This document shows, piece after piece, positions 45,443 to 49,745 of a stretch of 64,000 nucleotides of DNA. The notes under the pieces are model-generated. The model ran no database searches and had not been told where the DNA came from. It saw nothing but the letters and a program-made list of their open reading frames with translations. Both the position numbers and the translations under genes were made by a program. This DNA is from an uncultured Gammaproteobacteria bacterium (GTDB taxonomy: Bacteria; Pseudomonadota; Gammaproteobacteria; DRLM01), in assembly GCA_963761035.1 (NCBI GenBank), contig CAVXFH010000002.1, positions 1,215,017 through 1,279,016 of the forward strand. The letters are read 5' to 3'. Position 1 is the stretch's first letter. The number at the start of each line of letters is the position of its first letter.

Positions 45443-46393
45443 CTAGCGCGCAGTAGACACCGGCGCTAAAAAGTAACCGGTGGTGATTTGATCATGAATC
45501 TCGGCGAGCTGCGCTTGCAGCTCGTCAATAAATTGGTGCAACTCCGTCTGGGACAGACGTTCAGGTTCGGCATCGGACACCACCCTCTGTAATTTTGTTA
45601 TCAGCCGCAGGGGCGCATCGTTGCGCGGCAGATCCCGCAGACTACCCTCCACTTCACTAATGGCATGATAAAACGAGCGCGGGAAACGCCGATCTTGGAA
45701 TAGAAACTTCAATACATCGGGGCGCCGCACCCGCACCTGCATGGCGCGGCGATACATCTGGTAACCCGTCAGAGATTTCAATACGCTCATCCATTGAATA
45801 TTCTCGAAGGGTAACAAATCCGTCAACTTCTCCGCTAGGAGATTGACGGAGCGCACATCGATGATACGAGTGGTCATATCCGCACGTTCCAGATTACGGC
45901 CCATGCGCAAAAATCCATAGCCGGCGTCATGGGTCATGGTCCCCGCCAGCATACCGGTAATAGTCTGGACCCCCAGGATGGTCCAGTGCAAATAGTCGTA
46001 ACGCCCGCGCCGCGACAGACCGGACTGCAGATTGCCCTTGCACTTCAAATAAAGGTTGTTGATCTGCTCCCAGGCCTCGCGTGGAATGATGTCGCGGATT
46101 GTGCGCGCGTTTTCCCGGGCATTATTCAATGAATAGATGACCGAACCGGGATTGAGCGTGTCCCCCACCAAGAAGCCCACCAGGTTGCGTTCGTCGGCCA
46201 CTCCGTAATGGTCCCTGAAGAGCTCGCTGTAACCGGTAATATCCACCAATGTCTCCCAGTCGAAAGCGATCTTTTTCGGCAGGTCCAGTACCAGGTGGGT
46301 AGTAACATTGACCAGGCGTGAGGTGTCCTCGGCGCGTTCCAGGTAGCGAGCCATCCAATAAACGTTTTCCGCGACGCGGGATAACATGGTCAT
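45443..46393 (-). CDS. Alpha-E domain protein (DUF403)
   Basis: MLSRVAENVYWMARYLERAEDTSRL is the characteristic alpha-E N-terminus. Overlaps the ATP-grasp gene by 4 bp. Confidence 0.75.
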   Translation of the reverse strand: MTMLSRVAENVYWMARYLERAEDTSRLVNVTTHLVLDLPKKIAFDWETLVDITGYSELFRDHYGVADERNLVGFLVGDTLNPGSVIYSLNNARENARTIRDIIPREAWEQINNLYLKCKGNLQSGLSRRGRYDYLHWTILGVQTITGMLAGTMTHDAGYGFLRMGRNLERADMTTRIIDVRSVNLLAEKLTDLLPFENIQWMSVLKSLTGYQMYRRAMQVRVRRPDVLKFLFQDRRFPRSFYHAISEVEGSLRDLPRNDAPLRLITKLQRVVSDAEPERLSQTELHQFIDELQAQLAEIHDQITTGYFLAPVSTAR

Positions 46394-47874
46394 AGCGACT
46401 CGATGTCCACGATCCAGGTATCCTTGCTGCCGCCGCCCTGGGAGGAATTCACTACCGTGGAGCCCTTCTTCAGGGCGACGCGGGTAAGACCTCCGGTGGT
46501 AACGTAGGTCTTTTGTCCCGACAATACGAACGGCCGAAGATCCAAATGCCGGGGTTCAACGCGCTCGCCCACCAGAGTGGGCGCCGTGGACAGGATCAGC
46601 AAGGGCTGCGCGATGTAATTACGCGGATCCTTGCGGATAAGCCTGGCGAATTTTTCACGCTCATCGCGACTGGCCTGGGGACCGATCAGCATACCGTAGC
46701 CGCCGGACTCATTGGCCGGTTTCACCACCAGTTTATCGAGGTGTGCCAGCACATATTCGCGCTGCTTCTTATCCGCGCACAAATAAGTCTCTACGTTGGG
46801 GAGAATCGGGTCTTGATCCAGATAATAACGGATCATCTCCGGCACGAAGGCATATACCACCTTGTCGTCCGCCACCCCGGCGCCGGGCGCATTGGCCAAT
46901 GCCACATTGCCTTTTTTCCAGGCGCGCATAAGGCCCGGCACGCCCAAGGCGGAAGCGGGATCGAAGGCTTCCGGATCGAGAAATAGGTCGTCGATGCGCC
47001 GATAGATGACATCGACCCGAATCAGGCCTTCCACCGCCCGCATGTATACGCAATCATCATCGGCCACCACCAGATCGCGCCCTTCCACCAGCTCGGCGCC
47101 CATTTGCTGCGCAAGATAGGCATGCTCGAAATAAGCGGAGTTGTAGACACCCGGCGTCAGCACCACCACCTCCGGCTGCGCCAGCGGTCGCGGCGAGATG
47201 GCGGCCAGACAATCGTACAGCTGGGAAGGATAGTCGTCGACCGGCAGGATACTCGCCTCTTGAAACAACTCGGGGAACACGCGTTTCATCACCTGGCGGT
47301 TTTCCAGCATGTAGGACACGCCGGACGGCACTCGCAGATTGTCTTCCAGCACATACACCGTGCCGCTCTTGTCCCGGACCAAATCGGATCCGCAGATGTG
47401 GGCCCAAATTCCCAGTGGCGGATTGACACCGACGCATTGCTCCCGAAAATTTTTCGAGCCTGTCAGAATCTCTCCGGGAAAGACCCCATCCTTGACGATG
47501 CGTTGCTGGTGATAGATATCATCGATGAACAAATTGAGGGCATGCACCCGCTGCTTGAGACCCGCCTCGATGTGCTCCCATTCCGCGCGGGGGATGATGC
47601 GCGGAATAATGTCGAAAGGCCAGGCGCGATCAATGGAACCGTCCTGCTGGGAATAAACGGTGAAGGTGATGCCCATGACGCGGATCGCCAGCTCCGCCGC
47701 CGCTCTGCGCGCCCGGATCTCGTCACCGGATAGGCATTTCAGATATTGGCAGAGAAAACGGGCGGCCTCGCGCGGGCGACCACCGCCCCGCATCAATTCG
47801 TCATACAGACCCCGAGTGGGATACTCTTTCCAACGAATCGCCATTTTGCAACTATACCCCGGAAACGCCACCAT
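46390..47874 (-). CDS. Circularly permuted ATP-grasp (type 2) protein (DUF404/DUF407)
   Basis: 494 aa. Conserved pairing with the alpha-E protein. Family assignment by overall resemblance and recalled context. Confidence 0.65.
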   Translation of the reverse strand: MVAFPGYSCKMAIRWKEYPTRGLYDELMRGGGRPREAARFLCQYLKCLSGDEIRARRAAAELAIRVMGITFTVYSQQDGSIDRAWPFDIIPRIIPRAEWEHIEAGLKQRVHALNLFIDDIYHQQRIVKDGVFPGEILTGSKNFREQCVGVNPPLGIWAHICGSDLVRDKSGTVYVLEDNLRVPSGVSYMLENRQVMKRVFPELFQEASILPVDDYPSQLYDCLAAISPRPLAQPEVVVLTPGVYNSAYFEHAYLAQQMGAELVEGRDLVVADDDCVYMRAVEGLIRVDVIYRRIDDLFLDPEAFDPASALGVPGLMRAWKKGNVALANAPGAGVADDKVVYAFVPEMIRYYLDQDPILPNVETYLCADKKQREYVLAHLDKLVVKPANESGGYGMLIGPQASRDEREKFARLIRKDPRNYIAQPLLILSTAPTLVGERVEPRHLDLRPFVLSGQKTYVTTGGLTRVALKKGSTVVNSSQGGGSKDTWIVDIESL

Positions 47875-47953
47875 TCCCAGCCACAGCCTTGTGGACGATT
47901 ACCGTGATAGACCTTATGATGGGCTCGAATAATAATAGTACCGCGCTACCACC

Positions 47954-48697
47954 ATGACCTATTGCCTTGCAATCAAAGTAAACGACGGCTTAATACTAGC
48001 CTCCGACTCGCGCACCAACGCCGGCGTGGACTACGTCAGCACTTACAGCAAAATGCATGTGTTTGATAAAGCGGGCGAACGCTTCTTTGTGCTGCTCACA
48101 GCGGGAAATCTCGCCACCACCCAGGCTGTCGTCAACATCATCAAACGCGATCTCAACAATCCTCATGCGAAACTGAGCTTGAATACCGTGGACCATGCCT
48201 TCGATGCAGCTCATTATGTCGGCGGCATCAATTATCAGATGCAGCTGGAATACAGTGAACCGCTCAAGCAAGGCGGCGCCAGCGCGGACGCCTCCTTCAT
48301 TCTAGGAGGACAGATCGCCGGCAGCTCTCATGAGATTTATTTAATCTATCCGCAAGGCAACTATATCGCCGCCTCGCCCGAAACGTCATATCTGCAAATC
48401 GGCGAATCCAAATACGGCAAACCCATTCTCGACCGCATCATCACCCCGGCAACCAGCCTGGAAGAAGCTGCGCGCTGCGCGCTGGTATCGCTGGACTCCA
48501 CCATGCGCTCCAACATCTCAGTGGGGCCGCCACTGGAACTGGCCTTCTACCGAAAAAATCAACTGGCGCTGGATCGTCACATAACCCTTGATGGCAATTC
48601 GCCGCTGTTTCGCCGCATGCAAAGACGCTGGAATGACGGCCTGCGCCGCGCGTTCAACGGTCTGCCCCGTTTCGAGTGGGAACCTAAGGCAGATTAA
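47954..48697 (+). CDS. Anbu-type proteasome-like Ntn hydrolase (ancestral beta subunit)
   Basis: MTYCLAIKVNDGLILASDSRTNAG has N-terminal Thr after Met, typical of proteasome beta/HslV-like proteins. Divergent from the ATP-grasp/alpha-E operon. Confidence 0.7.
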   Translation: MTYCLAIKVNDGLILASDSRTNAGVDYVSTYSKMHVFDKAGERFFVLLTAGNLATTQAVVNIIKRDLNNPHAKLSLNTVDHAFDAAHYVGGINYQMQLEYSEPLKQGGASADASFILGGQIAGSSHEIYLIYPQGNYIAASPETSYLQIGESKYGKPILDRIITPATSLEEAARCALVSLDSTMRSNISVGPPLELAFYRKNQLALDRHITLDGNSPLFRRMQRRWNDGLRRAFNGLPRFEWEPKAD

Positions 48698-48821
48698 CGG
48701 TGACAGGCGGGCCTCGGCAAATCGCGGATAAATCGCAGTTTGATCACAGCGGGTCCAGACAGGACAAAGGGATAGGGGTCTGCCGAACCTAAGCTGCGGG
48801 CCGTCGCATTCAAGGCCAGGG

Positions 48822-49448
48822 TCAGGACAGCCCATTGCCCGCATATCTCTGCAGAGTTGCGGTCGCACCGAACAGAATCGATGGCACCGCATTGCCGCGA
48901 ACAGCCACTCCCTCGTCCGCAGCGGTCTCCAAGCTGTCCACCATGCGGAGGTTGAGCGCCCATGTCTCCGCCCAATCCTCCCAAGGATGGACAGTCGCGT
49001 ATGCGCTTACGTAGTATTGATGCCAGTGCAGTTCAGCGCCAGATTGATAATAACAATCCAGCTCCTCCTTATAATCCTGCCGTTCGTCGCCAAATAACGC
49101 TCGAAATTTTTCGACGCGCTGTCCTGATCGGATCAACCAGCCCCAGTAATAATGACCACTCTCGTGACGGAAATGTCCCAACAAGGTTCGATACAGCTCA
49201 TTCATTGTTTCATATATGGTCTCACGCTTACCGGTATCGGCCTTTGCCAGACTGATAGTAATCGGTCCCCCGCTGCGGCCCGTGAGAACGCGGCGTTGAT
49301 ATGCTTTATCATCGATAAACTCGATCGAGGTATCGGCATCGGCGAGAAAATAGAAGGCTAGGCCCGACTCGGGAACCTCCCCGATACCTACAACAGGCAG
49401 TCGTAACGCCAACCGTGCATATAGTAAGTGTCTCCTTTCGGCATCCAT
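48822..49448 (-). CDS. Putative zinc-binding metallopeptidase (COG4307-like); N-terminal zinc-ribbon region apparently missing or degenerate
   Basis: HExxH HESGHYYW and WEDWAETWA motifs. The recalled family members carry about 90 extra N-terminal residues with CxxC pairs. Upstream DNA (49450-49720) is AT-rich and noncoding-looking. Confidence 0.55.
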   Translation of the reverse strand: MDAERRHLLYARLALRLPVVGIGEVPESGLAFYFLADADTSIEFIDDKAYQRRVLTGRSGGPITISLAKADTGKRETIYETMNELYRTLLGHFRHESGHYYWGWLIRSGQRVEKFRALFGDERQDYKEELDCYYQSGAELHWHQYYVSAYATVHPWEDWAETWALNLRMVDSLETAADEGVAVRGNAVPSILFGATATLQRYAGNGLS

Positions 49449-49745
49449 GCGACCTCATAGATTACGATTACACGGCAGGGACAAGTCAGAGATGACTTGA
49501 TCGACAAGAAAGTCAATAAGGATTGGGATCGGATACAGGCACCATCTACATACTTGCTGGCACTCATAGTTGGTGCACATCCTATATATTGCATTATTCG
49601 CGGCACCAGCCTGCTAAGGGTTACAGCAGAGACCCGCGAAAGCCGCATGACATTGCTGCGGGATCGCAACTGCGCTTCCGGTGAATTTCCCGACGCTATT
49701 TCTTATTTATCCGGTGAGTGATGGCTGCTGCAACAAGAGACGCCA

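Follow-up and report, generated by a model that had tools for sequence, protein, structure and literature searches.

An intact three-gene Anbu module beside the decayed remnant of its usual fourth gene in an uncultured gammaproteobacterium

Introduction

The locus described here raises the question of which genes a working Anbu module needs, when one of the expected partners is absent and another gene beside it is visibly damaged. The window, as the whole stretch of DNA analysed is called throughout, comprises 64 kb of the genome of an uncultured Gammaproteobacteria bacterium; it carries a gene for Anbu, a proteasome-like N-terminal nucleophile (Ntn) hydrolase, next to a pair of genes coding for a circularly permuted ATP-grasp amidoligase and an alpha-E protein, together with a short open reading frame (ORF) displaying an HExxH metallopeptidase motif. 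In the textbook operon, the genes for ATP-grasp, alpha-E, transglutaminase and Anbu are co-linear (Valas and Bourne, PMC3235984; Piasecka et al., PMC6376114). The evidence assembled below makes it very probable that the window holds a working Anbu-1 three-gene core of a widespread subtype whose usual fourth gene, located convergently with Anbu and coding for the metallopeptidase PepMx (a double zinc ribbon plus Peptidase_Mx, PF10005 + PF15887), is dead in this genome. Loci of relatives are numbered L001 and so on, and homologous proteins P0002 and so on.

Results

Identity of the core genes

The assignment of the three genes to the Anbu, alpha-E and circularly permuted ATP-grasp families, proposed in an earlier note on this DNA, was borne out by Pfam profiles and by the PDB entries 5LOY, 5LOX and 3N6X, as was the divergent disposition of Anbu with respect to the ATP-grasp and alpha-E pair, which the four ORFs of the locus display (Table 1). 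A genome scan with the ATP-grasp protein retrieved 80 related loci at 70-90% identity, onto which all the components were mapped, and Anbu is likewise located on the opposite strand from ATP-grasp in most of the close relatives. The ATP-grasp protein scores 562.6 bits against PF14403 (CP_ATPgrasp_2; cut-off 32) and 475.5 bits against PF04174 (CP_ATPgrasp_1; cut-off 23.1), and its residues 43-489, nearly the whole chain, are matched by PDB 3N6X (E 1.8e-157), a structure of the same family and fold whose label, 'putative glutathionylspermidine synthase', is an annotation and not a tested activity, and gives the window protein no substrate. The alpha-E protein reaches 307.4 bits against PF04168 (curated cut-off 20.8), and a PDB search found no solved structural relative of it. 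The ATG of alpha-E overlaps the stop codon of ATP-grasp by 4 nt (ATGA), an arrangement which suggests that both genes are translationally coupled, and alpha-E directly follows ATP-grasp in essentially all of the 80 related loci, contig-truncated ones aside.

Anbu matches the generic proteasome profile PF00227 with an E value of 3.6e-9, and its solved relatives far more strongly: the Anbu-1 consensus structure 5LOY is aligned at E 3.8e-82 (query 2-243 on chain 1-240), the Pseudomonas aeruginosa Anbu 5LOX at E 4.6e-63, and 5NYW, 5NYJ and 5NYF at E 1e-55 to 1e-60, in end-to-end alignments. In its sequence MTYCLAIKVNDGLILASDSRTNAGVDYVSTYSKM the Thr stands immediately after the start Met and without a propeptide, and T1, D17 and K32 align with those of 5LOY and 5LOX. 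The S1 pocket of the P. aeruginosa Anbu-1 is amphiphilic and formed by T20, F30, T48, L52 and S55 (Fuchs et al., PMC5666114); the corresponding positions in the window read T20, Y30, T48, L52 and T55, that is, two conservative changes from Anbu-1 and none of the basic residues of Anbu-2. ATP-grasp, alpha-E and Anbu thus constitute an intact three-gene Anbu module.

PepMx as the usual fourth gene of the cassette

In the 64 kb of the window, tblastn with three transglutaminases from related operons, one of them verified as PF08379 + PF01841, gave no match at E <= 1e-3; the same search detects homologs of 23-52% identity in many related loci. The earlier note was therefore correct in reporting the absence of the transglutaminase, although this is not the oddity that it had been taken for. 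Among 42 well-flanked loci, defined by at least 5.5 kb of sequence upstream and at least 3.5 kb downstream, the modal composition is PepMx plus Anbu without transglutaminase (19/42), which is the layout of the window. Five loci combine PepMx, Anbu and transglutaminase, four carry PepMx alone and three Anbu alone (L002, which is the nearest relative, L009 and L064); seven have a transglutaminase without PepMx, one of these with Anbu, and the remaining four have none of the three. The absence of transglutaminase is, in consequence, the norm for the operon subtype of this ATP-grasp clade.

The peptidase, which had been described as merely adjacent, is found in 24 of the 28 Anbu-bearing loci, where transglutaminase occurs in six, and this frequency indicates that the HExxH gene is the usual fourth member of the module and not a chance neighbour. 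Anbu is present in 24/28 loci with PepMx compared with 4/14 without it (Fisher p = 4e-4, without phylogenetic correction), and transglutaminase tends to be rarer where PepMx is present (5/28, against 7/14 in its absence; p = 0.07). In locus orientation the modal cassette reads PepMx (+), Anbu (-), ATP-grasp (+), alpha-E (+), and the window matches this order, with PepMx as a pseudogene. Carriers of the intact cassette include the cultured strains Paraglaciecola hydrolytica S66 (L057) and Lacimicrobium alkaliphilum X13M-12 (L071). Neither the PepMx partner nor the divergent layout without transglutaminase is mentioned in PMC5666114, PMC6376114, PMC3235984 or PMC8665760, or in full-text searches for the family names, a coverage that does not extend to Iyer et al. 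2009.

Other arrangements of the same components were also identified. A protein of approximately 1100 aa with an N-terminal transglutaminase region directly follows Anbu in the same orientation, PepMx being located beyond it, in L019 (5615-8935), L022, L048 (5808-9113) and L068 (5424-8867); this combination of Anbu, transglutaminase fusion and PepMx is a third cassette architecture, in which both accessory enzymes are united. In L052, L055, L075, L077 (8851-9930), L080, L091, L097-L099 and L103, mainly Alteromonadaceae-like genomes, PepMx directly precedes ATP-grasp and alpha-E, in the same orientation and without an intervening Anbu, so that PepMx can pair with the ligase module without Anbu. 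L040, L044 and L047 harbour a second, co-linear set of ATP-grasp, alpha-E, transglutaminase and Anbu, which is a distant paralogous copy (ATP-grasp 35-40% and Anbu 41-44% identical to those of the window). In metagenome loci seeded from PepMx itself, 24 of them well flanked, ATP-grasp is nearby in 12, Anbu in four and transglutaminase in six; a solitary context of PepMx was observed in L100, L107, L113, L118, L123, L126, L134, L138, L140, L144, L150 and L156. Clustering of the ORFs of at least 150 aa from the 80 loci revealed no recurrent fifth cassette gene or small precursor-peptide gene besides ATP-grasp, alpha-E, Anbu, PepMx and transglutaminase, and the intergenic gaps of the window are too short to hold another gene.

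The family to which PepMx belongs (PF10005 + PF15887, formerly DUF2248 / COG4307) comprises zinc-binding metallopeptidases with a fold like that of M34 zincins, such as anthrax lethal factor, the Pro-Pro endopeptidases and 4L7A. The best 120 homologs of the window peptidase are mostly 355-364 aa long and contain both domains, the N-terminal one being a double zinc ribbon of about 93 residues with four Cys pairs. The closest full-length homolog, P0002 (60% identity), gives a confident AlphaFold2 (AF2) model (pLDDT 92.7, pTM 0.91).

Anatomy of the PepMx pseudogene

The damaged gene was mapped by three agreeing methods, namely tblastn with the full-length homologs P0002, P0003, P0009 and P0011, frameshift-aware protein-to-DNA alignment to the L003 and L004 proteins, and a family hidden Markov model (HMM) run on three frames, which recovers segments 49-294, 70-88 and 308-355 distributed over those frames. 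Homology begins at 49613, at about family position 49. After 49542 the reading frame shifts, and it later returns, leaving a shifted patch at about 49489-49541 in which a TGA (49513-49515) occupies the place of an invariant Cys; a second TGA (49455-49457) stands in place of an invariant Trp, and the next ATG, at 49448, is the start of the annotated ORF. The ribbon domain, decayed here, is matched by PF10005 at E 8.5e-31 in L003 and 2.7e-27 in L004. The residual ORF keeps HESGH (49166-49152; HESGHYYW at 49166-49143) and HPWEDWAE (48989-48966), and lacks the zinc ribbons and the C-terminal helices. The latter correspond to a segment (Table 1) placed out of frame by another frameshift, which the earlier note had overlooked; this segment ends at the TAA 48694-48696, abutting the Anbu stop, and in the AF2 model of P0002 it is folded with confidence into two helices (302-322 and 335-352). 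The first 48 or so codons, which would encode the first zinc knuckles, have left no trace in 49614-49745 that the family HMM on three frames (--max, E up to 100) or frameshift-aware alignment could detect.

In total, the gene has accumulated two TGA nonsense codons and at least three frameshifts. Once the frameshifts are repaired in silico, 9 of the 50 invariant positions and 17 of the 61 covered near-invariant positions are found changed, compared with 0/50 in L003 and in 14 other loci. In comparisons of the pseudogene with L003 and L004, saturation of synonymous sites (dS above 2) deprives the ratio of nonsynonymous to synonymous substitution rates (dN/dS) of any information, and invariant-site counts and strain-level polymorphisms were used instead. 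Readthrough of the two TGA codons, one of them at an invariant Cys, the classic selenocysteine/Cys position, and the other at a Trp, was also considered and rejected, because frameshifts flank the codons, nine invariant residues are replaced and TGA terminates other genes here. The pattern of lesions indicates that the PepMx gene is here a dead pseudogene, multiply broken over its whole length. Compared with its family, this copy retains the HExxH and the downstream Glu-containing motif, with a strong PF15887 match (E 6.7e-65), and differs in being a pseudogene devoid of the first zinc ribbon.

This picture modifies what had been proposed for the peptidase. It is indeed damaged, with 208 aa left open of the 355-364 aa usual in the family, although by many lesions and not by a clean truncation. 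The DNA upstream of the residual ORF, previously read as AT-rich non-coding sequence that had replaced the N-terminus, has a content of guanine plus cytosine (GC) of approximately 47-54%, only a mild AT shift relative to the window mean of 58%, and half of it is the ribbon remnant at 49449-49613.

Indels are common in long-read and metagenome assemblies, and the frameshifts and stops might in principle be errors of sequencing or assembly in a gene that is really intact. Two independent contigs led us to reject this explanation, which we regard as scarcely credible. The Logan contig L001 is 100% identical to the window over 3730 nt, though both may go back to one sample; the JGI contig L082, which belongs to another dataset and represents a second strain, covers 48516-49498 with 7 single nucleotide polymorphisms (SNPs) in 983 nt and no gaps, and its gap-free alignment implies that the TGA at 49455-49457 and the C-terminal frameshift are present in it too. 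L082 ends at 49498, and does not reach the TGA at 49513-49515 or the whole of the shifted patch. Errors of assembly would, moreover, leave unexplained the nine substitutions at invariant sites and the missing first 48 codons. All seven SNPs of L082 fall in the pseudogene (six nonsynonymous and one synonymous, as read from the alignment), the 180 nt of Anbu on the contig being free of them, a distribution with the appearance of neutral drift at the sequence level. The pseudogene state is fixed in at least two strains.

A different possibility is that the 208-aa ORF encodes a minimal zincin which naturally lacks the ribbon, is functional and serves the Anbu module. HExxH and HPWEDWAE are intact in it, a GAGG lies 5 nt upstream of its ATG, the ORF is 98% conserved in the second strain, two pipelines call it a gene, and a few short family members exist in databases. 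Nevertheless, stop-bearing remnants of the ribbon lie directly upstream, the two C-terminal helices of the AF2 fold are out of frame, invariant residues (E, K, H, N and E) have been substituted in and around the ORF, the near-invariant HYLH has become LNLR, and six of the seven substitutions between strains are nonsynonymous. The comparison with relatives recommended in the earlier note also goes against such a protein: the peptidase N-terminus is present elsewhere, full-length PepMx (family HMM positions 1-359) occurring in 39 of the 80 related loci, and all copies that lie wholly within their contigs are full length and carry the zinc ribbon, with the exception of a fragmented copy in L055, which means that the case of a naturally ribbon-less family does not apply. 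Most of the short database entries begin at internal Met codons or lie on truncated contigs. A minimal zincin is, on these grounds, very improbable, and the reading of the ORF as the open remainder of a dead PepMx gene is preferred.

Loss of the peptidase within a small clade

The window and the loci of its three closest genomes (L002, L003 and L004) are syntenic on both sides, with speE and speA on one and SPOR, argS and priA on the other, and they display different states of the peptidase gene. L003 has an intact PepMx of 358 aa (PF15887 E 2.1e-100, in addition to the PF10005 match given above). In L004 the frame is open over 356 aa (8093-9163, +), and yet substitutions affect 9 of 50 invariant and 16 of 62 near-invariant positions, including TGH to AAY, AEAD to ADQG and YPF to YSS; to judge from these changes, the gene appears to be either a cryptic pseudogene or under relaxed constraint, though annotation would call it intact. 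In L002 PepMx is fully deleted, and the stop codons of Anbu and of the GGDEF-EAL gene upstream are only 61 bp apart. Within this small clade, then, the trend is towards loss of the peptidase and retention of the three-gene core.

The slot upstream of PepMx varies as well, being occupied by a Calx-beta/DUF6923 gene in L003 and L004 and by a low-GC GGDEF-EAL gene in the window and L002. The window gene (PilZ-DUF1631-GGDEF-EAL, 1202 aa) has a GC of 0.499 and a GC content at third codon positions (GC3) of 0.571, against a GC3 of 0.65-0.76 in its neighbours, and the two GGDEF-EAL genes taken together have a GC of about 0.50 and a GC3 of 0.51-0.57. The gene is either fast-evolving or acquired from elsewhere. 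The L002 ortholog of its product is 55% identical, and the flanking genes are 77-90% identical.

These features bear on the proposal that insertion of a low-GC island, the segment with the GGDEF-EAL gene, cut off the 5' end and the promoter of the peptidase gene and thereby killed it. The segment at 49.4-54 kb does combine atypical composition with presence and absence among relatives, nothing that matches family HMM positions 1-48 can be detected, the homology ends at 49613 with 132 nt left before the GGDEF-EAL stop, and within the clade a full-length PepMx accompanies the other gene of the slot (L003 and L004), whereas no working PepMx accompanies the GGDEF-EAL gene (window and L002). However, L004 lacks the GGDEF-EAL gene and its PepMx is degenerating all the same, which shows that relaxed constraint needs no insertion; in the window at least five other lesions are spread along the gene, and 165 nt of the DNA supposed to be its replacement are a recognisable remnant of it. 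The coincidence of decay boundary and island edge that had been reported does not hold either, since homology ends at 49613 and not at the ATG at 49448, and the GC drop begins inside the pseudogene, at about 49000. As to hallmarks of an island, there is no tRNA in 40-60 kb, there are no flanking direct repeats in 48.5-54.5 kb, and the segment consists of one signalling gene without mobility genes. Clipping by an island may account for the missing 5' end; the decay does not require it and would not follow from it alone, and as the cause of death of the gene it is considered rather unlikely.

The three core genes behave differently from the peptidase. Against L002-L004, dN/dS is 0.08-0.11 for Anbu, 0.08-0.14 for alpha-E and 0.06-0.09 for ATP-grasp, values comparable to those of the housekeeping gene argS (0.09-0.17) and pointing to strong purifying selection on all three. 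They also bear on a further alternative, according to which the whole module is decaying and ATP-grasp, alpha-E and Anbu are non-functional relics deprived of transglutaminase and peptidase. In its favour, neither of the two partner peptidases described or observed in other forms of the module survives here, one being absent and the other a pseudogene, but all three genes are full length with their catalytic residues in place, dN/dS remains at 0.06-0.14, similar to that of argS, the same three-gene layout recurs in L002, L009 and L064, and the promoter hexamers are conserved. General decay of the module is thus highly improbable, in favour of a working core that has lost its fourth gene.

Start site, promoter and neighbouring sequences

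The coordinates of the features are collected in Table 1. The ATP-grasp proteins of the close relatives all start at MAIRWKEY, which corresponds to the ATG at 47844 in the window, and this is probably the true start; the first 10 codons of the longest ORF, which begins at 47874, are then probably untranslated, widening the divergent promoter region to approximately 109 bp. A promoter scan located a sigma-70-like promoter (TGGACG, a spacer of 17 nt, TATGAT) at 47892-47920 (+), whose -35 and -10 hexamer columns are conserved across the window, L002, L003 and L004; this predicted Anbu promoter is a consensus match from which function may be presumed. An Rfam scan of 40-56 kb gave zero matches.

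Table 1. Features of the Anbu locus in the window, with positions numbered from its first letter
Feature	Coordinates	Strand	Remarks
alpha-E gene, 316 aa	45443-46393	-	PF04168 E 1.8e-91, full-length match 1-294/294
Circularly permuted ATP-grasp amidoligase gene, longest ORF 494 aa	46390-47874	-	PF14403 E 4.8e-169; PF04174 E 9.8e-143
ATP-grasp/Anbu divergent intergenic region, 79 bp	47875-47953		Predicted sigma-70-like promoter for Anbu
Anbu (Anbu-1 type proteasome-like Ntn hydrolase), 247 aa	47954-48697	+	PDB matches; T1/D17/K32
PepMx pseudogene, whole	48694-49613	-	Family positions ~49-355 of 361; convergent with Anbu
PepMx pseudogene, C-terminal ~50 codons (…CGQWAVLTLALNATARSLGSADPYPFVLSGPAVIKLRFIRD…)	48694-48875	-	Out of frame after frameshift ~48873-48878
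Residual HExxH ORF, 208 aa	48822-49448	-	PF15887 E 6.7e-65, profile positions 9-180 of 236 only
Decayed second half of double zinc-ribbon domain, 165 nt	49449-49613	-	Two TGA codons and a two-frameshift patch
Spacer, GGDEF-EAL stop to start of PepMx homology, 132 nt	49614-49745		GC 0.538

The module is flanked on the left by priA, argS and a SPOR/FtsN-like gene, and on the right by the PilZ-DUF1631-GGDEF-EAL gene (49746-53354, -), beyond which lie speA and speE. A gene-free stretch of 619 nt (53355-53973, GC 0.49) separates the GGDEF-EAL gene from speA, and tblastn found in the window no remnant of the outer-membrane beta-barrel gene that adjoins speA in L002 and L003. A strongly low-GC stretch (40200-40800, 0.39-0.42), the lowest in the finely profiled 38-56 kb, is located just upstream of priA. 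The genes speA (arginine decarboxylase) and speE (spermidine synthase) occupy 53974-56845, and the label of 3N6X as a 'putative glutathionylspermidine synthase' invites a connection with them; the idea that these polyamine genes hint at the substrate was dropped, as the synteny with speA and speE is confined to the three closest relatives, is probably coincidental and carries no functional weight.

Discussion

The module belongs to a known kind. The canonical Anbu operon (COG2308, COG2307, COG1305 and Anbu, as around P. aeruginosa PA1733 or in Yersinia bercovieri) shares with the window the three families, the catalytic Thr1, Asp17 and Lys32, a similar S1 pocket, and adjacent, coupled ATP-grasp and alpha-E genes. 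It differs in that the window has no transglutaminase gene, its Anbu is divergent from the ligase pair instead of being the last of four co-linear genes, and a gene for a zinc-ribbon zincin is convergent with Anbu. What the Anbu papers cited above do not mention is the PepMx-linked divergent architecture without transglutaminase, of which the window is a decayed member.

As regards function, the roles of ligase, Anbu and PepMx can be inferred from family knowledge. ATP-grasp and alpha-E would form an amide bond via an acyl-phosphate intermediate, building a small peptide or amino-acid tag or attaching it to a peptide or protein, and Anbu, through Thr1, would hydrolyse the amide product or the tagged substrate. 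PepMx, or the transglutaminase-like peptidase in other subtypes, would add a second hydrolytic step of processing, trimming or recycling, one that may be dispensable in this lineage. Some published data can be set beside this scheme: phosphate release from ATP has been shown for the Y. bercovieri operon's ATP-grasp (PMC6376114), proteasome inhibitors bind in the active site of P. aeruginosa Anbu, which assembles into an open dodecameric split ring (PMC5666114), and induction of the Anbu operon by nitrogen limitation in Pseudomonas putida is cited in PMC3235984 and PMC6376114. An analogy with the pupylation system of actinobacteria (the ligase PafA, the deamidase/depupylase Dop and the 20S proteasome), which PMC5666114 and PMC6376114 attribute to Iyer et al. 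2009, is functional only, and lies in the association of an ATP-dependent ligase, a proteasome-family Ntn hydrolase and an accessory hydrolase. PafA is glutamine-synthetase-like, whereas the window ligase is an ATP-grasp; the Anbu cassette contains neither a Pup-like tag gene nor an AAA+ unfoldase; Anbu forms an open split ring, in contrast to the closed barrel of the 20S proteasome; and tagging by Anbu modules is itself only inferred.

Several observations weigh against a working three-gene core with PepMx as its customary partner. Purified Anbu was inactive on standard peptidase substrates and no complexes with its operon partners were detected (PMC6376114), and the substrate and function of the Anbu module are not known (PMC8665760). 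Valas and Bourne (PMC3235984) found no Anbu genome wholly without transglutaminase, and the window represents just 64 kb, so a transglutaminase or a second copy of PepMx may sit elsewhere in this genome. The co-occurrence statistics come from one ATP-grasp clade and lack phylogenetic correction. In 12 of the 24 well-flanked loci seeded from PepMx, neither ATP-grasp, alpha-E, Anbu nor transglutaminase is found within 8 kb, which makes PepMx a frequent partner, not an obligatory or exclusive one. Finally, given the Shine-Dalgarno-like GAGG in front of the residual ORF, a truncated product could still be made.

The series of intact, degenerate, pseudogenized and deleted PepMx genes, together with the purifying selection on the core, points to a minimal three-gene core. 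In a wider sense, PepMx may be a dedicated, so far unreported component of a major Anbu-1 subtype, where it would largely replace transglutaminase, and ATP-grasp, alpha-E and Anbu may be an autonomous minimal unit; this generalization is put forward tentatively, at somewhat less than an even chance of being right. For annotation, the 208-aa "peptidase" called by pipelines should be corrected to a pseudogene fragment, and the missing transglutaminase regarded as normal for the subtype. Anbu is a widespread relative of the proteasome whose function has been elusive since 2008 despite several crystal structures. That its usual companion in this ATP-grasp clade is PepMx and not transglutaminase alters the choice of proteins for co-expression or reconstitution, and, if the generalization is true, a simplified system of three genes, together with a defined accessory factor, would be at hand for asking what Anbu does.

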